Source of the DNA: Geotalea daltonii FRC-32
GTDB lineage: Bacteria; Desulfobacterota; Desulfuromonadia; Geobacterales; Geobacteraceae
Direction of reading: 5' to 3'
DNA: 32,000 bases
Assembly (NCBI RefSeq): GCF_000022265.1
Contig: NC_011979.1
Coordinates: 1,800,001 to 1,832,000, forward strand
The position numbers and the translations under genes were made by a program. This document shows positions 3 through 30,571 of the stretch, piece after piece; the first letter of the stretch is position 1; every line of letters starts with the position of its first letter. The notes beneath the pieces were generated by a model that saw nothing but the letters and a program-made list of their open reading frames with translations, ran no database searches and was not told the DNA's origin.

Positions 3-152
3 GTTACCCAGATCGGCAAAGAGTGCCATACCCGCTGTGCCATCTACTACCAGGCCGGTGACTGCGTCATGCCCAAGGAAGGGATCTTTGCCAGGGTCAT
101 TACCGGCGGCACGATCAAGCCCGGTGATGGGATTGCGGTGAAGGAGCGTTGA
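3..152 (+). CDS. MOSC-domain protein, C-terminal 49 codons (5' end outside window)
   Basis: Frame 3 reads without stops as VTQIGKECHTRCAIYYQAGDCVMPKEGIFARVITGGTIKPGDGIAVKER, with stop TGA at 150-152. The QIGKECH..C...GDC.MP.EGIF...GG.I..GD pattern is typical of small molybdenum cofactor sulfurase C-terminal (MOSC) domain proteins. Too short to appear in the ORF track. Confidence 0.55.
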   Translation, partial: VTQIGKECHTRCAIYYQAGDCVMPKEGIFARVITGGTIKPGDGIAVKER

Positions 153-234
153 TTGGTGATTGGTGATTGGTGATTGGTGAGGTGGTAACTTCGAACTTCG
201 AACTTCGAACCTAGAACCTAGAACCTAGAACCTG
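150..234. repeat. Back-to-back tandem heptamer arrays: TGATTGG x4 (+TGA), AACTTCG x3, AACCTAG x3 (+AACCTG)
   Basis: Read directly: units at 150,157,164,171 (TGATTGG); 187,194,201 (AACTTCG); 208,215,222 (AACCTAG). The first TGA is the stop of the + strand MOSC gene. CTA at 225-227 is the TAG stop of the - strand kinase gene. Confidence 0.95.
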
Positions 235-2216
235 CCTTTAATAGGCAGCGAAACCTTAAAGGTGCTTCCTTTCCCCGCTTTGCTTTCTACCCGAATTGTC
301 CCGCCGTGGTCATTGACGATACCGTATGATACTGACAGGCCCAACCCCGTGCCGTTTGCCTTGGTGGTAAAGAAGGGGTTGAATATCTGCTGTAGATTAT
401 CTGCCTCTATGCCGGTGCCGGTGTCGGCAATCATTATCTCTGTCTGCTCCCGTTGACGGTCCAGCTGAGTTCTTACCGTCAGGATACCCCCCTTGTCCAT
501 CGCCTGAATCGCATTTAGCACCAGATTCGTCAAAACCTGTCGGATCTGTTCACTGTCCCCCTCCAGGATGGGCAACCCCGGCTCATATTCCTTGATAATA
601 CGGATATGGGAAAGGGGCACCTGGTGCACGATCTGAGCGAGAATTTCCTCCATCAGCTCATTGACCCGCACGTGCCCCAGCTGTTTCTTTTCCTGGCGGG
701 CGAATCTGAGCAGGTTGCCGACGATGCGCTCCACTCGCCCCACCTGCTGATAAATGGTATCCACCTCGTCCCGGTTGTCCGCCCCTTCCGGCACCGACAT
801 CTGCAGCAATTCCGTGTTGCCCCGGATGATGGCCATGGGGTTGTTGATCTCATGGGCAACGCCGGCGGCCAGCTCGCCGATGGCGGCAAGTTTCTCCGCC
901 CGGACCAGTTCTTCCCTGGCCTTCACCAGCAGCCGGTTCTTCTCCTCCAGTTCTGCCGTTCGCTCCCGGACCTTGTTTTCCAATCCCCTGTTCAGCTCCC
1001 TGATATCATCCTCGCGCTGCATCAGAGCCCGGTTCATCTGGTTGAATTCCTCTGCCAGATCCCCCAGTTCATCCCGGCTGGATATCAGGCACTGCACATC
1101 CCGTTCCCCCGCAGCCACGCGCCGTGCCGCATTTTCCAGTTCCTTGACCGGTTTTGCCAGGCGGGCCGCCAACCAACCTGCTACGGCAATGCCGATCACC
1201 GCTCCCACCAGCAGGACGCCGCTGAAGAGGAGTCCCAGCCTAAACTTGATGGCGGTGTATGGCTTCTCAAGCATCCCCACATAGAGGGAGCCGAGGGGGA
1301 CGCCATCGACGGAGAGGATCGGTTCATAGGCGGTAAAATACCAGTCATTGACGACGAAGGCCCGGTCGATCCATTTTTCCTTGTGCAGGATGACCCGATT
1401 ATAGACCTCTTCCGAAAGCCGGGTGCCGATTGCGCGCGATCCGCCTGAGGTCAGGACGTTGGTGGCGATGCGCAGGTCGCCGAGAAAGATGGTGGCGCTC
1501 CCCACGTCCTTGCCATCGGCCTTCACCCCTTCGTAGACGATGCTCTTGATCTTGTCCACCAGGCTATTGTTCTTGTTGAGGAGGACGCCGCCGCAGAGGG
1601 CGCCGATAATCCGCCCTGCGCCGTCCCTGACCGGTGCGGCGGCAATGAGCATCATTCCGGCCCGTTCCATGGTCTCGGTGGTGGGCCGTGCATGGGGGGT
1701 GGAGAGGATGGGTATGGTAGCTTGTTCTGCCAGCTGATTTCCTTCCATGGCCATGGCCTCGGCCGACACGATCCAGGTACCGGCAATGATTTCCCCCTTG
1801 AGGGCACGGGTGATGACCGGGTTACGGGACTTGTCGTCACTGGAGGCGGCCGGGTTGTTGGCGCGGTACAGGACTCTGCCCTGGGCATCCAGCGCCATGA
1901 ACAGATCAAGCTGCTCTGTCTGCCTCAGGGGGGCGAGAATGCCGGCCAGCACCTCCCTGTTGCCGTGGAGGGCTGCGGCGGTGTAGGGGGCGGAAGCTGT
2001 AAACCTGACCACGTCGCGGATGTGGCCCACTTCGTGGAGGTAGACCTCGCGAGCGGCGTTCAGGTCATTGCGCACCTTTTCCTGGGCTTGCCTGACGACC
2101 CTGGTGTTGAGGATGAACACCCCGGCAAGCCAGCAGATAAGGATAGCCACGGCGATGGGAATGAGAATGGCGATGGACAGCTTTCTTTTGATGGAGAAGC
2201 GCTTCTGCTGCGGCAA
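225..2216 (-). CDS. Sensor histidine kinase (TM, Cache-like extracytoplasmic domain, TM, HAMP, HisKA, HATPase)
   Basis: 663-aa ORF with a TTG start at 2216 preceded by AAGGAG. It has an N-terminal TM helix, a ~280-aa sensor region, a second TM, an H-box (GVAHEINNP) and N/G boxes (NLVLNAIQA, DTGTGI, GTGLGLS). It begins 3 nt after the upstream response regulator gene ends. Confidence 0.9.
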   Translation of the reverse strand: MPQQKRFSIKRKLSIAILIPIAVAILICWLAGVFILNTRVVRQAQEKVRNDLNAAREVYLHEVGHIRDVVRFTASAPYTAAALHGNREVLAGILAPLRQTEQLDLFMALDAQGRVLYRANNPAASSDDKSRNPVITRALKGEIIAGTWIVSAEAMAMEGNQLAEQATIPILSTPHARPTTETMERAGMMLIAAAPVRDGAGRIIGALCGGVLLNKNNSLVDKIKSIVYEGVKADGKDVGSATIFLGDLRIATNVLTSGGSRAIGTRLSEEVYNRVILHKEKWIDRAFVVNDWYFTAYEPILSVDGVPLGSLYVGMLEKPYTAIKFRLGLLFSGVLLVGAVIGIAVAGWLAARLAKPVKELENAARRVAAGERDVQCLISSRDELGDLAEEFNQMNRALMQREDDIRELNRGLENKVRERTAELEEKNRLLVKAREELVRAEKLAAIGELAAGVAHEINNPMAIIRGNTELLQMSVPEGADNRDEVDTIYQQVGRVERIVGNLLRFARQEKKQLGHVRVNELMEEILAQIVHQVPLSHIRIIKEYEPGLPILEGDSEQIRQVLTNLVLNAIQAMDKGGILTVRTQLDRQREQTEIMIADTGTGIEADNLQQIFNPFFTTKANGTGLGLSVSYGIVNDHGGTIRVESKAGKGSTFKVSLPIKGRF

Positions 2217-2219
2217 TGG

Positions 2220-3602
2220 TTACTCTCCTTCGGGCTTCAGCCCGAATTCCGCAATCTTGCGGTCGAGGGTCTTGCGGGAAATACCGAGAATTTCGGCAGT
2301 CCTGCTCTTATGAAAGCCGGTCCGCGCCAGCGTCTGCCGGATGTGCTCCCGTTCCACATTCTCCAGGGAGACCAACTGGTGGCTTGACAGGGCAGATGCC
2401 GGCCCAGTTGCAGCGGTCGATGCAACATTTTTCTTCCACATGGGCAGGTGGTCGGTGGTGACCACGCCGCTGCGGGCCAGTATCACCGCCCGCTCGACGA
2501 CGTTTTCCAATTCCCGGATATTGCCCGGCCAGCTATAGCCCAGCATCAGGTCCAGCGCTTCCCTGGTGAAGCGGTCGACCTCTTTGTTCATGCGCTGGTT
2601 GTACTTTCTCAGGAAATGGCGGGCCAGGGGCTCGATGTCCTCTTTCCGTTCTCTGAGCGGCGGCAGGGGTATGGAGATGACATTCAGCCGGTAATAGAGG
2701 TCCTCCCGGAACCTTCCCTCGGCCACCTCCTTCTCCAGGTTCTTGTTGGTGGCGGCAACGAAGCGGATGTCCACCTTCTTCGCCCTGGTCGCCCCCACCG
2801 GAATGAAATCTCCCTCCTGGATCACCCTGAGCAGCTTGGCCTGCAGCATCAGGCTCATGTCACCGATCTCGTCCATGAAGAGGGTGCCGCTGTCCGCCTC
2901 TTCCAGGAGCCCTTTCTGGTTGGTGGTGGCGCCGGTGAAGGCGCCGCGCACATGGCCGAAGAGCTGCGATTCCAGGAGCGTATCGGACAGGGCGGCGCAG
3001 TTGATGGAAAGAATGCGCCGTCCCCTGCGCTTGCTGTGCCGGTGAATGGCGCCGGCAATGAGTTCCTTTCCCGTCCCCGATTCGCCGAGGATGAGGATGT
3101 TTGCCTCGCTGGCCGCTACCTCCAGGGTCAACTCGTAGACTTCGCGGAAGCGGTCGCTGGCAAAGACGATGGCGTCCGTCAGGGTAACCTTCCCCAGTTC
3201 CTCCTTAAGCTGCTGATTCTCCTTGCGCAGAAGTTCCCGCTCCAGAACATTTTCCAGTACGCCCAGGATCTTTTCCTTGGGAAAGGGCTTGGTCACGTAA
3301 TCGTAGGCCCCCAGTTTCATGGCCTCAACCGCGGCATCGATAGTGCCGAAGGCGGTCATGATAACTACCGGCAGCCCGGGGCGGAGCTTTTTCACTTCCT
3401 GCAGGATCTGGAGCCCATCCATGTCAGGCATTTTCACGTCCTGCAGCAACAGGTCGGCATTGGGCCCTTGCTGCAGCCGGGCAAGGAGCATCTTTCCGGA
3501 GGTGAATGTTTCAACGACCAACCCCTGAGACTCCAGGAGCTTTTTCATATATTTGAGGATGCCCTCTTCGTCATCGCAGATGAAAATTCTTGTCTCTGAC
3601 AT
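2220..3602 (-). CDS. Sigma-54-dependent response regulator (NtrC family: REC + AAA+ + Fis-type HTH)
   Basis: Has a REC domain (LLLQDVKMPDMDG), Walker A GESGTGKE, the GAFTGA sigma-54 contact loop and a C-terminal HTH (RTAEILGISRKTLDRKI). The preferred start is ATG 3602 (MSETRIFICDDE) behind GGAG. The track start at 3647 adds 15 residues with no evident SD. Confidence 0.9.
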   Translation of the reverse strand: MSETRIFICDDEEGILKYMKKLLESQGLVVETFTSGKMLLARLQQGPNADLLLQDVKMPDMDGLQILQEVKKLRPGLPVVIMTAFGTIDAAVEAMKLGAYDYVTKPFPKEKILGVLENVLERELLRKENQQLKEELGKVTLTDAIVFASDRFREVYELTLEVAASEANILILGESGTGKELIAGAIHRHSKRRGRRILSINCAALSDTLLESQLFGHVRGAFTGATTNQKGLLEEADSGTLFMDEIGDMSLMLQAKLLRVIQEGDFIPVGATRAKKVDIRFVAATNKNLEKEVAEGRFREDLYYRLNVISIPLPPLRERKEDIEPLARHFLRKYNQRMNKEVDRFTREALDLMLGYSWPGNIRELENVVERAVILARSGVVTTDHLPMWKKNVASTAATGPASALSSHQLVSLENVEREHIRQTLARTGFHKSRTAEILGISRKTLDRKIAEFGLKPEGE

Positions 3603-3685
3603 GTAGTTGCACTCCATACTCCCCTCGCATCCCCCCCTACTCTGCATGGGGATGCGAACGTACGTGAACAGGAGGGTGAAATAAT

Positions 3686-3927: not shown

Positions 3928-6900
3928 ATGGCAGTTTCACGAAGACAATTCCTGCAGGGGGGCGCATTGGCAGCGGCAGGGCTGGCGCTTACCGGCAAGC
4001 CCGGGGAGGCAAGCGTCGATGCGCCCCAGATGCGGACCAAGGGCCTGAAGTCATCCACCACCATCTGCCCGTTCTGCGCCGTCGGCTGCGGTCTGATCGT
4101 CCACACCCGGAACGGCAAGATCGTCAATATCGAAGGAGACCCGGATCACCCCATCAACCATGGGGCGCTCTGTCCCAAGGGGGGCGCCCTGTTTCAGATC
4201 GCTAACAACGAGCGGCGTCTGCAGAAGGTCATGTACCGTGCCCCCCGTTCCGACAAATGGGAAGAAAAGTCCTGGGATTGGGCACTGGAGCGGATCGCCA
4301 AAAACATGAAGGAAACCCGAGACAAGACCTTCAAGACGACAGAGATCAACAAGAAGGACAATAAAGAGTACCTGGTGAACAGGACCGAGGGGCTTGCTTT
4401 TTTCGGTGGCGCAGGGTTGGACAACGAGGAATGCTACCTCTGGTCCAAGTTTGGCCGGGCCATGGGTGTGGCTAACCTGGAACACCAGGCCCGACTTTGA
4501 CACAGTGCTACAGTCGCCGGTCTGGCGGCTTCATTCGGTCGTGGTGCCATGACCAATCACTGGATTGACCTGAAGAACTCCGATGCCATTCTGGCCATCG
4601 GCTGCAACCCGGCCGAGAACCATCCTATCTCCTTCAAATGGATCGAGGAGTCACTGGATAACGGCGGCAAGCTCATTGCCGTCGATCCCCGTTTTACCCG
4701 GACCGCCTCAAAGGCGGACATTTATGCCCAGATCCGGCCGGGCACCGATATCGCCTTTCTCGGCGGGCTGATCAACTATGCCCTCAGCCATAACCTGATC
4801 CACCAGGAATACGTGCGGGAGTACACCAACGCCACCTTCATCGTCAACGATAAGTTCGATTTCGAACAGGGAATGTTCTGCGGCTTTGACGACACGGAGA
4901 AGAGCTACGATTTAAAGATGCTTGCCTATGAGCTGGACGGTGCCGGCAACCCGAAGCAGGACCGCTCCATGCAGCATCCCCGCTCCGTTTTCCAGCTGAT
5001 GCGTAAGCACTTCTTCCGTTATGACGTGAATACCGTCTGCGCCATCACCGGCACGAAAAAGGACGAGTACCTGAATGTAGCCAAGACTTTTTGTGGCACC
5101 GGCCGTCCCGACAAGGCCGGGACCATCCTCTACGCCATGGGCATCACCCAGTCTACCCACGGCACCCAGAACGTGCGTGCCATATCAATGCTGCAGATGC
5201 TCCTGGGCAACATCGGCATCGCCGGCGGCGGCATCAATGCCCTGCGCGGCGAGAGCAACGTCCAGGGTTCCACCGACTACGGGCTCCTCTTCCACATCCT
5301 GCCGGGCTACCTGAAATCCCCGGAGTTCGACAACGTGGACCTGAAGACCTACCTGGAGAAATGGACCCCCAAAACCAAGGACAAGAAGAGCGCCAACTGG
5401 TGGGGCAACACGCCGAAATATACGGTGAGCCTCCTGAAGGCCTGGTACGGCGACAACGCCACAAGGGACAACGACTTCTGCTACAGCTATCTCCCCAAGC
5501 GGAGCGGCAACTACTCCTATATGAAACTGATCGAGAAGATGGGCAAGGGGGAACTGGAGGGGCTGGTCTGCATGGGCATGAACCCGGCCATGGGGGGGCC
5601 CGACTCCACCAATGCCAGGGATGCCCTGGGCAAACTGAAATGGCTGGTCACCGTGGACCTGTGGGAAACGGAGACCTCCATCTTCTGGAAGCGCCCCGGC
5701 GTTGACCCGAAGAAAATTGATACTGAAGTATTCATGCTTCCTGCCGCCTCCAGCGTGGAAAAGGAAGGTTCCATTTCCAACTCGGGCCGCTGGGCCCAGT
5801 GGCGCTACAAGGCCCAGGAGCCGGTAGGCGAATCCAGGAGCGACCTGCACATCATCCACGAGTTCTTCACCAGGGTCAGGGACCTCTACAAGAAGGAAGG
5901 GGGCGCCTTTCCCGAGCCGATTACCAAGCTCGCCTGGAACTACGGCACCGGCCATGAGCCCGATGTGCACCAGGTGGCCAAGGAGATCAACGGCTACTTC
6001 ACGAAAGACATGACCATCAAGGACAAGGACAAGACCCTTGAATTCAAGGCAGGGGATCAGGTCCCCATGTTCAAGTACCTCCAGGACGATGGCTCCACCG
6101 TCTCCGGCTGCTGGATCTACTGCGGTTCCTATACCAAGGAAGGCAACCAGATGGCCCGCCGCGATGCCAGCGATCCCACCGGCCTCGGCCTTTTCCCCAA
6201 ATGGTCCTGGTGCTGGCCGGTCAACCGCCGCATCATTTACAACCGCGCCTCGGTCAATCCCGACGGTGTTCCCTTCAATCCCAAGCGGGTGGTGATCGCC
6301 TGGGACGGGCTGGAGAAGAAGTGGCAGGGGGATGTGCCTGACGGGCCGTGGCCTCCCATGAACGACGACAAGGAGGGGAAATATCCCTTCATCATGCTGG
6401 CCGAGGGGCATGCCCGTCTCTACGGCCTGGATCTGAAAGATGGCCCGTTCCCCGAGCACTACGAGCCGGTGGAGAGCCCGGCCAGGAACCTTTTGTCGCC
6501 GGTGCAGAACAACCCGGTGGTCAAACTGCCGAAGAACGTCTCCTCCGATCTGGCGAAATTCCCGTATATCGGCACCACCTACCGGGTCACCGAGCACTGG
6601 CAGGCCGGGGCCATGACCCGCAACCTCCCCTGGCTGGTGGAACTGGTGCCCGACATGTTCGTGGAACTCTCGGAAACCCTGGCCAAAGAGAAGGGAATCC
6701 ACCAGGGGGACAAGGTGAGAATCAGCACCGTGCGCGGCACCATCGAAGCGACGGCGCTGGTGACGGCACGGCTCAAACCATTCAATGTTGATGGAAAAAT
6801 GATCGAGCAGGTGGGGATGCCTTGGCACTTCGGCTATGCGGGCCTGGCCAAGGGGGACAGCGGCAACGTCCTGACCCCGTCCGTTGGCTGCGCCAATACC

Positions 6901-24667: not shown

Positions 24668-25672
24668 ATGTTGACAACAATCAGTAGAGCCATTTTCTTT
24701 GCCGCTTTGGCAGTTGGCCTGCCGTTGGCGGCATTCGCACAGGTCAACCTTTTGAACGTTTCCTACGACCCGACCCGCGAGCTTTACCAGGATTTCAATA
24801 GCGCCTTTGCCAAGCAGTGGAAAAAACAAGCCAAGGAAGATGTTAGCTTCAAGCAGTCCCACGGGGGGTCCGGCAAACAGGCCCGGGCGGTTATCGATGG
24901 TCTGGATGCCGATGTGGTCACCCTGGCTCTGGCCTACGACATTGACGAGATCCATGACAGGGCGAAACTCATCCCACAGGCGTGGCAAAAACGGCTGCCC
25001 AACAACAGTTCACCCTACACCTCGACTATTGTTTTCCTGGTTCGCAAGGGTAATCCGAAGAAGATCAAGGACTGGAGCGATTTGGTGAAGCCAGGTGTGG
25101 CAGTTATCACCCCCAATCCCAAAACCTCTGGCGGTGCACGATGGAATTACCTGGCTGCCTGGGGGTATGCCTTGAAACAGAAGGGTGGAAATGAAGCCAA
25201 GGCAAAGGAATTTGTCACGAGGCTCTTCAAGAACGTGCCGGTCCTTGATTCGGGAGCGAGGGGCTCTACGACTACATTTGTCCAGCGCGGACTGGGAGAT
25301 GTGCTCCTTGCCTGGGAAAACGAAGCGTTTCTGGCAGTGAACGAACTGGGCAAAGACAAATTCGAGATTGTCGTGCCATCTGTCAGCATCCTCGCCGAAC
25401 CGCCGGTGACCGTGGTCGACAAGGTCGTTGACCGGAAGGGGACGCGCAAGGTGGCCGAGGCATATCTGAAGTATCTCTACACGCCGGAAGGGCAGGAGAT
25501 CGCTGCCAGGCACTATTACCGGCCCAGGGACAAAAAGGTGGCGGCAAAATACGCCAAGACCTTCCCCAAGGTGAAGCTCTTTACCATCGATGGGCAGTTC
25601 GGCGGCTGGCGAAAGGCGCAGAAGGCGCACTTTGCCGATGGCGGTGTATTTGACCAGATCTACGCCAAGTAA
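24668..25672 (+). CDS. cysP: Sulfate/thiosulfate ABC transporter periplasmic binding protein
   Basis: Has a signal peptide and near-colinear matches to remembered Sbp/CysP segments ([81 protein letters not shown]). Confidence 0.9.
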
Positions 25673-25707
25673 AGAGTGAAGGGCGAGGAGTGAAGAGTGA
25701 GGAAGAG
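25673..25707 (+). repeat. Degenerate heptamer array AGAGTGA AGGGCGA GGAGTGA AGAGTGA GGAAGAG
   Basis: Starts the nucleotide after the cysP TAA stop. It contains the GAGGAG SD and the GTG start (25697) of cysT, and uses the same TGAAGAG family as 30523-30564. Confidence 0.8.
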
Positions 25708-26609: not shown

Positions 26610-27488
26610 ATGAATAGTACCGGGGTGCTGACAAATAATAGGGAACTGAGCAACAGAAATGAGCTGACCGAACCCGTGCTGGTGCGCTGGCTGCTGATTG
26701 CCGTGGCACTGGCATTTCTGGGCCTGTTCCTGGTGGTTCCCCTGGCGGCGGTCTTCAGCCAGGCCCTGGAGAAAGGGTTCGACGTCTATCTTGCTTCCCT
26801 GAAGGAGCAGGATGCCGTTGCCGCCATCAAACTGACCCTTGTCACTGCCTTGGTCAGCGTGCCGTTGAACCTGTTCTTCGGTGTTGTTGCCGCCTGGGCC
26901 ATTGCCAAATTCGATTTCCCCGGCAAAAGCTTCCTCATCACCTTGATAGATCTCCCTTTTTCCGTGTCACCGGTTATATCAGGCCTCATCTACGTGCTGC
27001 TCTTCGGCCTGCAGGGGTGGCTGGGCCCGTGGCTCCAGGAGCACGACATCAAGATCATCTTTGCCGTGCCGGGTATCATTCTGGCTACCATTTTCGTCAC
27101 CTTTCCCTTTGTGGCCCGTGAGTTGATTCCCCTCATGGAATCCCAGGGGAAAGACGAGGAGGAGGCAGCACTGGTATTGGGAGCGAGCGGCTGGCAAACC
27201 TTTTGGAGGGTTACCCTTCCCAATATCCGCTGGGGTATCCTTTACGGCGTCATTCTCTGTAATGCCAGGGCCATGGGGGAATTCGGCGCGGTATCCGTCG
27301 TTTCCGGCCACGTGCGCGGCTCCACCAATACCATTCCGCTGCATGTGGAGATTCTCTACAACGAGTACAATTATGTGGCCGCCTTTGCCGTGGCGTCACT
27401 TCTGGGGATGCTGGCAGTCGTCACACTGGTTGCCAAGAGTTTAGTCGAGTGGCGGATAAAGGCTGTGAAGAGGGACGGTGATTGGTGA
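26610..27488 (+). CDS. cysW: Sulfate ABC transporter permease CysW
   Basis: Permease fold with EAA loop [34 protein letters not shown] precedes the ATG. The last 7 codons (VKRDGDW) are encoded by a repeat unit. Confidence 0.9.
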
Positions 27489-27518
27489 AGAGGGACGGTG
27501 ATTGGTGATTGGTGATTG
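27465..27518 (+). repeat. 20-bp tandem duplication (GTGAAGAGGGACGGTGATTG x2) followed by GTGATTG x2
   Basis: Copies at 27465-27484 and 27485-27504 are identical, followed by heptamers at 27505 and 27512. The cysW stop TGA (27486-88) lies at the junction. Confidence 0.95.
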
Positions 27519-27567
27519 GTGCCGGGTAAATAGTGACGTGAATTAAAGAAATGGGGCTAGATAGAGC

Positions 27568-29311: not shown

Positions 29312-30511
29312 ATGGCGAAGCAAAGGTATCTGTTTACATCGGAATCGGTCACCGAAGGCCATCCGGACAAGCTGGCGGATCAGATTTCAGACTCGGTGCT
29401 GGATGCGATTCTGGAACAGGACCCCCTGGCGAGAGTTGCCTGTGAAACCAGCCTCAATACTGGATTAGCCCTGGTGACGGGAGAAATTACAACACTGGCA
29501 CGGCCGGAGATAGCCAAAATCGTCCGCAACACCATCAGGGAGGTTGGCTATGATCATCCCGACTATGGCTTCGACGGGAAAACAGCCGCAGTCCTTGTTT
29601 CGGTGGATGAACAGTCGCCCGACATTGCCCAGGGAGTGAACCGGGCGCTGGAAGCACGCCGGAACGGTGATCATGACGGTTATCTGGACTCGGTTGGGGC
29701 AGGAGACCAGGGGATGGTGTTCGGTTTTGCCACCGATGAAACGCCGCAGTTTCTCCCCACCAGTATTGCCTTGGCCCATGGCCTTTCCCGCCGCCTGGCT
29801 GAAGCAAGGAAAAGCGGTGACATATCCTATCTACGCCCGGATGGCAAAAGCCAGGTGACGGTGGAATATGAAGGAGACCGGCCGGTGCGGGTGGATACTA
29901 TCGTTATCTCGGCACAACACGCTCCCGAGGTTGAGCTTGAACAGATTCGCAAAGACATCATCGCCCAGGTGATCGAACCGGTCATACCTGATGGATTGCT
30001 GGACGACAAAACGAAGATCTATGTCAATCCCACCGGCCGTTTCGTCGTCGGCGGACCCCATGGCGATGCGGGGCTGACCGGCCGCAAGATTATTGTCGAT
30101 ACCTACGGCGGTTTTGCCCGGCATGGGGGGGGCGCCTTTTCGGGAAAAGATCCCACGAAAGTTGATCGTTCCGGCGCCTATGCGGCACGTTATGTGGCGA
30201 AGAATGTGGTTGCTGCAGGCCTTGCCAGGAGGTTGGAAGTTCAGATTGCATACGCAATCGGCGTGGCGCGGCCGGTTTCCATATTTGTCGACAGCTTCGG
30301 CACAAGTGAATTCACCAATAGCGAACTTGCCGAGCTGATAGCAGCCAACTTCGATCTGCGCCCAGCGGCAATCATAGAGCAGCTCGATCTGCGCCGCCCG
30401 ATCTACCGGCAGACTGCCGCCTATGGTCACTTTGGCCGGACTGATCTGGATCTTCCCTGGGAACGAACTGACAAGGCTGAGCAGCTCAAGCAGGCGGTAA
30501 TAAAACAGTGA
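29312..30511 (+). CDS. metK: S-adenosylmethionine synthetase
   Basis: ATG 29312 lies behind AAAGGAG. Conserved segments are [33 protein letters not shown] and [19 protein letters not shown]. The track ORF's upstream extension from 29201 has no support. Confidence 0.95.
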
Positions 30512-30571
30512 ATGGTGAATGGTGAAGAGTGAAGAGTGAAGAGTGAAGAGTGAAGAGTGAAGAGTGAAAGG
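30509..30571 (+). repeat. Nine-unit tandem heptamer array: TGAATGG x2, TGAAGAG x6, TGAAAGG x1
   Basis: Units begin at 30509,16,23,30,37,44,51,58,65 with no gaps. The first TGA is the metK stop. The last unit runs into AAAGGAG, the SD for the ATG at 30581. Confidence 0.95.

Follow-up and report, generated by a model that had tools for sequence, protein, structure and literature searches.

The heptamer tract between two convergent genes

We analysed a stretch of 32,000 nucleotides (nt) of the Geotalea daltonii FRC-32 chromosome (hereafter the window; C1:1800001-1832000 of the single-contig 4.30-Mb genome), in which a MOSC-domain gene on the + strand and a sensor histidine kinase gene on the - strand converge on a spacer composed of tandem heptamers. 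Coordinates below are relative to the window unless the genome is stated. The spacer measures 72 nt (153-224) and lies within an 84-bp tract (150-233) that consists of three heptamer arrays, each with 100% matches, laid out as follows:

3..152, + strand: 3′ end of the MOSC-domain gene (open reading frame, ORF; 148 amino acids, aa; start 294 nt before the window)
150..180, + strand: module 1, (TGATTGG)x4.4 = (GGTGATT)n, perfect repeat
178..191, + strand: linker joining the modules, two degenerate in-phase heptads, TGAGGTG and GTAACTT
187..210, + strand: module 2a, (AACTTCG)x3.4 = (TCGAACT)n, GAAC core, perfect repeat
207..233, + strand: module 2b, (GAACCTA)x3.9 = (TAGAACC)n, GAAC core, perfect repeat
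225..2216, - strand: sensor histidine kinase gene (663 aa; sCache_3, HAMP, HisKA and HATPase_c domains)

The stop codon of the MOSC gene (TGA, 150-152) is the first TGA of module 1, in which further TGA triplets at 157, 164, 171 and 178 bring all three + strand frames under a stop. Module 1 contains exactly four in-phase GTGA cores (at 156, 163, 170 and 177) and no C on its sense strand. Module 2a is stop-free in all six frames and near-palindromic (TTCGAA), and module 2b, through its palindromic CTAG, reads TAG on both strands. The CTA triplets of module 2b at 225, 218 and 211, each a TAG on the - strand, cover all three frames of that strand, and its last units supply the final codons of the kinase (..G R F) and its stop, TAG 227..225. 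A first-pass annotation of this DNA had proposed that both convergent genes end inside heptamer arrays whose TGA and TAG series cover the three frames of their own strands, and that the middle array (AACTTCG) has no stop; the ORFs and the repeat coordinates confirm both points. Neither protein loses domain sequence to the arrays. The Pfam MOSC domain spans residues 39-143 and is complete (profile positions 3-119 of 120), with just the last ~5 residues (AVKER) before or overlapping the array, and the HATPase_c domain of the kinase (residues 553-659 of 663; profile positions 1-109 of 111) is complete ahead of it.

Read in 7-nt blocks from position 150, the tract resolves into 12 in-phase heptads: TGATTGG four times, TGAGGTG, GTAACTT, CGAACTT twice, CGAACCT, and AGAACCT three times. 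The arrays had been described as mirror-oriented, one for each gene, but all three share the single orientation and order found throughout the family described below. The tract is one unidirectional compound element of the MOSC 3′ end, in which (GTGA-N3)n stands flush with the MOSC stop and is followed by (GAAC-N-T-M)m, and since this element extends through all 72 nt of the spacer, the kinase stop falls inside it.

A genome-wide family of stop-anchored heptamer arrays

Perfect arrays of at least three copies are abundant in this genome at period 7 only: 70 were counted, against 2 at period 5, 0 at period 8, 1 at period 9 and 0 at period 10 (0-13 each for periods 5, 6 and 8-12, and 0-1 for periods 8-11), and the tract is therefore far beyond chance. 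In total, 81 period-7 loci were identified, and ~85% of their units belong to two families. The GTGA type includes GGTGATT, the commonest unit of the family with 24 perfect arrays, together with GTGAAGA, GGAGTGA, GGTGAAG, GGTGACG and others, and the GAAC type includes TCGAACC, TCGAACT, TAGAACA and TAGAACC. Among the latter, TCGAACC, which has no UAG, forms 8 perfect arrays and TAGAACC forms 2.

The contexts of the arrays, classified by rough gene calls (3251 genes), place them at gene ends. At 41 of the 51 GTGA-led loci, the distance from the array start to the stop of the sense-GTGA gene is at most 25 nt in either direction (median, +2 nt), compared with 3.0 ± 1.7 loci (maximum, 9) under random intergenic placement, which bears out the suggestion that such arrays associate with gene ends genome-wide. 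By contrast, the stop of an antisense gene is abutted at just 2 of the 51, and the idea that each array at the MOSC/kinase junction serves one of the two genes does not survive this comparison. Of all loci, 58 lie between co-directional genes and 15 between convergent genes, and no array was found in any of the 405 divergent spacers; most arrays lie ~20 nt upstream of the next start. At every one of the 14 compound loci, the order runs from the stop to the GTGA module, a linker of 4-24 nt and the GAAC module. The phase across the module boundary is kept at just 4 of these 14 loci, so one continuous phase-locked array was rejected as a general description, despite the 12 in-phase heptads seen here.

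Array orientation changes over close to the GC-skew maximum (3.07 Mb), which is why a replichore-oriented signal of the Chi or KOPS kind was considered. It was rejected since, at each exception (genome positions 1189877, 2219450, 3288305 and 4135711), the array is oriented with the strand of the neighbouring gene; orientation thus tracks transcription rather than replication. As a separate observation, the cumulative GC skew is lowest at coordinate 0 and highest at ~3.07 Mb of the 4.30-Mb genome, which would make the replichores very unequal (~71:29) if the maximum marks the terminus.

Family members also occur in both rRNA operons, where at least 10 arrays occupy the 16S-tRNA-tRNA-23S and 23S-5S spacers (genome C1:2110500-2118500 and C1:3984500-3992500). 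These are arranged as opposed sense/antisense pairs (GTGACGA/ACCAATC, TAGTGAT/TCACCAA and AGTGATT/CCAATCA), which could form processing stems. Since both orientations are present in the rRNA spacers, the family is not tied to translation or to stop codons as such. Beside one of these operons (region C1:3984500-3992500, positions 6630-6710), just past the 16S end, an Rfam match to the group II intron domain D1-D4-3 was noted (36.8 bits; gathering threshold, 32).

Persistence and turnover in related genomes

The MOSC/kinase convergent pair is kept in Geotalea genomes only. More distant kinase orthologues sit beside different genes and lack arrays, which restricts informative synteny to Geotalea. 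The closest named relative recovered was Geotalea sp. SG265. Comparison of the spacer across relatives for unit-number polymorphism, as the first-pass annotation had advised, revealed arrays in four Geotalea species with different units and copy numbers:

G. daltonii (window genome, G000): (GGTGATT)4.4, then (AACTTCG)3.4 and (AACCTAG)3.9; MOSC end AVKER*; kinase end ..GRF and TAG
G002: (GGTGATT)3.6, then 14 GAAC units, the last (TTAGAAC)6; MOSC end AVIGDW*; kinase end ..SRF and TAA
SG265 (G005): (AAGAGTA)6, TAA-bearing, then three degenerate GAAC units; MOSC end AVKSKE*; kinase end ..CKF and TAA
G004: no module 1; another heptamer, (CATCRAC), in a 56-nt duplication; MOSC end VVVKEQG*

In three species, the array starts at a conserved Val codon (GCG followed by GTGA). 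The C-termini of both proteins are encoded by the array and vary from species to species, and a GTTCTAA unit contains the kinase stop TAA in G002 and SG265. The G004 junction carries a direct duplication of ~56 nt, each copy of which carries (CATCRAC)x4 and the last codons of the kinase, gctttaaaggcag.

We extended the comparison with SG265 to all loci; a recognisable orthologous gene end was available there for 43 of 63 G. daltonii loci. Among loci with at least three in-phase GT[GA]A cores, 22 of 32 (69%) keep at least three in SG265, against a base rate of 1.3% for all gene ends; the corresponding figures for GAAC loci are 10 of 17 and 0.9%. The units and copy numbers themselves usually differ considerably. 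One SG265 locus (G005:C12:210607-210967) has a stop-free (GTGGATG)x12 where G. daltonii has (GGTGATT)2.9, which indicates that some loci can do without a stop in the unit. The arrays keep their positions and architecture even as their sequence turns over.

The two modules also reach beyond the genus. Among 151 genomes of the order, 87 contain four consecutive (GTGA-N3) heptads; they represent 27 of 35 genera, and degenerate arrays that retain the core only are included. The compound arrangement (three GTGA heptads followed by three GAAC heptads) occurs in 11 of the 151 genomes, four of them from a second family. In G000, G005, G025, G035, G029 and G032, the forward module order gave 35, 9, 33, 15, 6 and 4 hits, respectively, and the reverse order, which is all but missing, gave none in any of them.

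Termination signals, RNA structure and base composition

The first-pass annotation had seen no terminator hairpin at the junction, and we likewise detected none on either strand: a search for intrinsic terminators (hairpin plus T-run) over positions 1-500 returned zero sites on both strands, and a separate scan of the spacer was also negative. The + strand of the spacer folds no better than shuffled sequences (z = -0.15). The - strand value (z = -2.0) reflects a small hairpin in the coding region and a GUUCGAA self-pair, and no Rfam family was detected in the window at the gathering threshold. Two features of this region are relevant to the end of the kinase transcript:

232..248, no strand assigned: small hairpin CTGCCT-TTAAT-AGGCAG inside the last codons of the kinase, with no T-run after it; not a terminator as defined above
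148..188, - strand: G-free, C-rich run of 41 nt in the kinase 3′ untranslated region (UTR), antisense of module 1; rut-like in base composition

The 41-nt run belongs to a 60-nt stretch of kinase-sense RNA with 28 C and 2 G. Across the family, the sense strand of module 1 contains 46.5% G and 1.3% C, and that of the GAAC module contains 30% C and 16% G. Rho is encoded in the genome (C1:754536). At the level of the genome, the arrays do not generally replace terminators, because 6 of the 9 array-bearing convergent spacers keep a hairpin with a T-run (158 of 356 among array-free convergent spacers); the MOSC/kinase junction is one of the three without.

Other family members and genes in the window

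Three further members of the array family were found in the window:

25668..25703, + strand: degenerate units of the AGTGAAG type, directly following a stop, with co-directional genes on either side
27465..27521, + strand: 20-nt unit GTGAAGAGGGACGGTGATTG x2.2 running into (GGTGATT)x3.6, overlapping the stop of the upstream gene
30507..30568, + strand: (GTGAATG)2.7 and (GTGAAGA)6.7, filling the interval from a stop to the AGGAGA ribosome-binding site of the next gene

At 27465-27521, the stop of the upstream gene lies inside a higher-order repeat that is itself made of heptads. On the other side of the junction, the gene upstream of the kinase (2220-3647, - strand) codes for a response regulator that carries GESGTGKE and GAFTGA motifs and is probably a sigma-54-dependent activator of the NtrC type. 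This neighbour lies on the same strand with a gap of 3 nt, and the two genes likely belong to a two-component operon that ends with the kinase.

Origin and possible roles of the arrays

We tentatively favour, at a probability of about 0.4, an account in which the arrays are generated by slippage and shaped by selection, belong to the known class of stop-proximal heptanucleotide repeats, and here donate both stop codons. The tract would then be a compound member of a lineage-wide array family of Geotalea and related Geobacterales, with module 1, (GTGA-N-K-R)n, flush with or overlapping the stop of the sense-GTGA gene (here MOSC) and module 2, (GAAC-N-T-M)m, after a short linker. Arrays would arise and turn over by slipped-strand mispairing, as indicated by this junction, where unit and copy number differ among four species, and selection on the transcript flank would limit where they persist and what shape they take. 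Beside a coding end, only the sense orientation with a stop in each unit should be able to overrun that end without extending or fusing the protein. At the MOSC/kinase junction, the element appears to have expanded until it filled the whole convergent spacer, thereby donating the MOSC TGA, with its CTAG units giving the last codons and the TAG of the kinase. The start of the arrays at a conserved Val codon and the completeness of both domains before them fit an expansion up to the limit of constraint. As a side effect of the array, the kinase transcript would carry the 41-nt G-free, C-rich tract, which, judged by its composition, is likely suited to Rho loading at this hairpin-less junction.

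Several observations weigh against this account, since slippage combined with plain tolerance does not predict them. Mismatches between adjacent units were counted per position, with the phase set by majority in each zone and with control cores for comparison. In the GTGA register, the four core positions showed 15, 9, 15 and 6 mismatches and the other three 28, 29 and 38 (p=2e-7), and in the GAAC register the counts were 12, 2, 1 and 0 against 41, 13 and 11 (p=2e-20). Thus, the cores are conserved and the remaining positions are free, the fifth position of the GAAC unit using all four bases about equally; control cores showed no comparable per-position conservation. A filter for stop donors cannot explain the GAAC core, because the commonest GAAC unit has no stop codon. 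Perfect GGTGATT arrays also stop on the core, with 21 of 27 ending after GGTG or GGTGA, and the number of in-phase cores peaks at four: arrays with 3, 4, 5 and 6 cores number 21, 27, 4 and 6 for GTGA in G. daltonii and 10, 31, 6 and 5 for GAAC (four versus three GAAC cores, binomial p=7e-4). Control 4-mers show nothing similar; in SG265, for which the sample is small (43 regions), no such peak is evident. To these may be added the module order, which is invariant across two families of the order, and the conservation of position (69% against the 1.3% base rate) despite complete turnover of the sequence.

Such constraints are what would be expected if the modules were cooperative binding platforms, that is, rows of at least four heptad sites for a putative oligomeric protein with one subunit or dimer per 7 nt, acting on the transcript 3′ flank, the intercistronic spacer or the DNA and thereby affecting mRNA fate or coupling. 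Conserved cores of 4-6 nt with free spacer positions, array ends that fall on the core, the mode of four cores in G. daltonii, the module order fixed across two families, the occurrence of (GTGA-N3)x4 in 87 of 151 genomes with core-only degenerate arrays among them, and positions kept through sequence turnover all point in this direction. There is also a precedent in the omega protein, which binds contiguous 7-bp WATCACW heptads in rows of at least four (PMC9499535); the AGTGATT and GTGATTT arrays found here match this consensus exactly. However, searches for the HutP, TRAP and omega families were negative (for omega, PF07764 had no match in the genome and its control was silent as well), and the small SG265 sample gave no clear mode at four. 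Stop-proximal heptamers with unrelated units occur in many phyla (PMC4692102, PMC4679880), which argues for a universal machine or a mutational constant and against binders particular to one lineage. An operator read as DNA should lie in promoters, but divergent spacers contain no array. We regard binding platforms as possible but somewhat unlikely, and the more specific proposal, that the GTGA and GAAC modules are platforms of about four heptads for one or two oligomeric proteins at gene ends across several Geobacterales families, as unlikely. If it held, these gene ends would represent a conserved and undescribed system whose sites evolve by slippage while core, module order and position are held by selection. 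One particular binder can be set aside. The first-pass annotation had compared the AACCUAG array, which reads UAG-N4-UAG-N4-UAG on both strands, with the sites of HutP-type proteins, and a site of the HutP or TRAP type, in which a ring-shaped RNA-binding protein reads the triads and acts as an antiterminator, was considered. In the hut system, two sets of three UAG-N4 triads lie in the 5′ leader and overlap a terminator. The tract here offers one set at a 3′ end, where there is no terminator to control, and its UAG-N4 spacing is uninformative because any heptamer containing TAG produces it. A TRAP site comprises 9-11 (G/U)AG triplets spaced by 2-3 nt, unlike the 4-nt spacing here. The look-up of such proteins that had been advised found no match to HutP (PF09021) or TRAP (PF02081) in the genome, with the Bacillus subtilis controls positive in both searches, and perfect TAGAACC arrays number just 2 against 8 of TCGAACC without UAG. 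The HutP/TRAP identity is effectively refuted.

Two further explanations appeal to general machinery rather than to a dedicated protein. The array could be a strand-asymmetric Rho signal: its C-free sense strand would be invisible to Rho and safe in operons, and its G-free, C-rich antisense strand would be a loading site that stops convergent or antisense transcription and would terminate the kinase transcript at the hairpin-less junction. The strongly skewed composition of module 1 and the G-free run in the kinase 3′ UTR are in line with this, as are the presence of Rho and the absence of an intrinsic terminator on either strand, and the asymmetry could explain why operons tolerate the C-free orientation only. 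The rRNA operons, in which both orientations are tolerated, also agree; antitermination in rRNA operons shields against Rho. A rule of composition alone, however, leaves the conserved cores, the 7-nt period and the GAAC module, with more C than G on its sense strand, unexplained. Moreover, the tract of 31-41 nt is shorter than typical rut sites, most of the convergent spacers with arrays keep a hairpin terminator, and most arrays lie inside operons, where no convergent transcript is expected. We consider this explanation quite unlikely. Alternatively, the arrays may be directed at the ribosome, as a row of UGA codons each preceded by a GGUGA resembling the Shine-Dalgarno (SD) sequence, serving as a backstop in all frames and, by pairing with the anti-SD sequence, holding the terminating ribosome in favour of re-initiation at the following cistron. 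GGUGAUU can form six Watson-Crick pairs and one G-U pair with the 16S tail of this genome (GAUCACC), every module-1 unit contains TGA or TAA, the SG265 orthologue changed to GTAA with the stop kept, and the arrays typically start at the stop (median, +2 nt) and lie ~20 nt upstream of the next start. Against this stand nine convergent loci, including the MOSC/kinase junction, that have no downstream cistron, and arrays in untranslated rRNA spacers. Conservation of the G at position 1 equals that of the stop positions, stop-free arrays exist (for example (GTGGATG)12 in SG265 and those of TCGAACC), units such as GTGAAGA match the SD sequence poorly, and three units would suffice for a stop in all frames, although four is the commonest number. 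Overall, a ribosome-directed role seems very unlikely. G-quadruplex formation was also tried as an explanation for the family and rejected, as many units lack GG and the GTGAAGA and GAAC units have no G-runs.

Comparison with known heptamer repeats

The Geotalea arrays share the defining features of the stop-proximal heptanucleotide repeat class, namely a tandem period of 7, a stop-proximal intergenic position and variable units and copy number at a kept locus. The closest counterparts are the heptamers reported by Rehm et al. 2015 (PMC4692102), GGGAATC in Xanthomonas and GGGGA(C/T)T in Nostoc, which lie 0-50 bp from the stop or overlap it on the coding strand, tend to have four units, keep their positions, and were left with their function unknown. 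Common to both sets are dispersed, mostly intergenic 7-nt arrays near or over the stop with conserved positions; a preference for about four units is seen in G. daltonii as well, but is not evident in SG265. They differ in that Geotalea has other units, two modules in fixed order and a stop in every module-1 unit, and its sense bias (41 versus 2) is far stronger than that of the Xcc repeats (~30% same-strand and 35% opposite-strand; PMC4692102). The units of Rehm et al. are G-rich, whereas a G-quadruplex cannot explain a family that includes GTGAAGA and GAAC units without G-runs.

A second set of counterparts consists of the TAACTGA direct repeats of marine Beggiatoaceae, cyanobacteria and Bacteroidetes (MacGregor 2015, PMC4679880), for which binding of S1, Csp or CsrA was proposed and which occur in sets of 2-6 copies interrupted by related 7-mers. 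As in Geotalea, these are "forward" heptamers in intercistronic gaps, some of which overlap the end of the upstream ORF, and their units contain a stop. The TAACTGA sets are anchored to the downstream start, with the largest class ending 1 nt upstream of it, and often replace the ribosome-binding site (PMC4679880), whereas in Geotalea the anchor is the upstream stop, a normal ribosome-binding site follows the array, and convergent gene ends carry arrays as well. The survey of long simple sequence repeats (LSSR) by Mrazek et al. 2007, as described in PMC4679880, found heptanucleotides to be the most abundant among repeats of 5-11 nt, with non-triplet units excluded from coding DNA, and proposed polymerase slippage; that description contains nothing on stop-anchoring, conserved cores, module order or a four-unit mode, in all of which the Geotalea account differs.

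The omega protein, a ribbon-helix-helix (RHH) ParB of plasmid pSM19035, binds WATCACW heptads (reverse complement, WGTGATW) with a minimum of four contiguous copies (PMC9499535) and so shares with the Geotalea arrays the 7-bp period, the ATCAC/GTGAT core and contiguous heptads, providing a worked mechanism for cooperative reading of heptads. Module 1 at the MOSC/kinase junction, (GGTGATT)4.4 = (AATCACC)n, has at least four contiguous heptads with the ATCAC core and fits WATCACW except at the last base. The omega sites are in plasmid promoters and the centromere, are read as double-stranded DNA and work in either orientation (PMC9499535), unlike the orientation-locked arrays at the 3′ ends of ~80 chromosomal genes in Geotalea, none of which is in a divergent promoter spacer and most units of which lack T after GTGA. 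This location at gene 3′ ends argues against an operator of the omega kind. Within the same order, Geobacter metallireducens carries GGGACCG x4 (49 copies) and MTYCTGA x5 as putative regulatory elements (Aklujkar et al. 2009, PMC2700814), which resemble the Geotalea arrays in being dispersed, multicopy and built of four or five tandem heptamers. They were rejected as members of the same family because their units are unrelated; in addition, many copies lie inside genes and MTYCTGA is paired on opposite strands (PMC2700814). Searching the literature for repeats of GGTGATT, GTGATTG and TCGAACC turned up nothing relevant.

Stop-proximal heptamer arrays have been seen for years in Xanthomonas, Nostoc, Beggiatoaceae and other bacteria without an explanation. 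If the constraints described above reflect a binder or Rho asymmetry, they would amount to a general rule for building bacterial gene ends. If slippage and tolerance are all there is, the arrays would still matter for annotation, since array-encoded stops and C-termini differ between species, and they would also be usable as hypervariable markers of strains. Geotalea is an unusually clean example of the class, with two defined modules in order, strict sense orientation, conserved cores and kept positions in a cultivable host. Relative to the repeats described before, what appears to be new is the arrangement of two modules in an order fixed across families, the near-absolute sense orientation, the conservation of the core and the use of the arrays in rRNA spacers.

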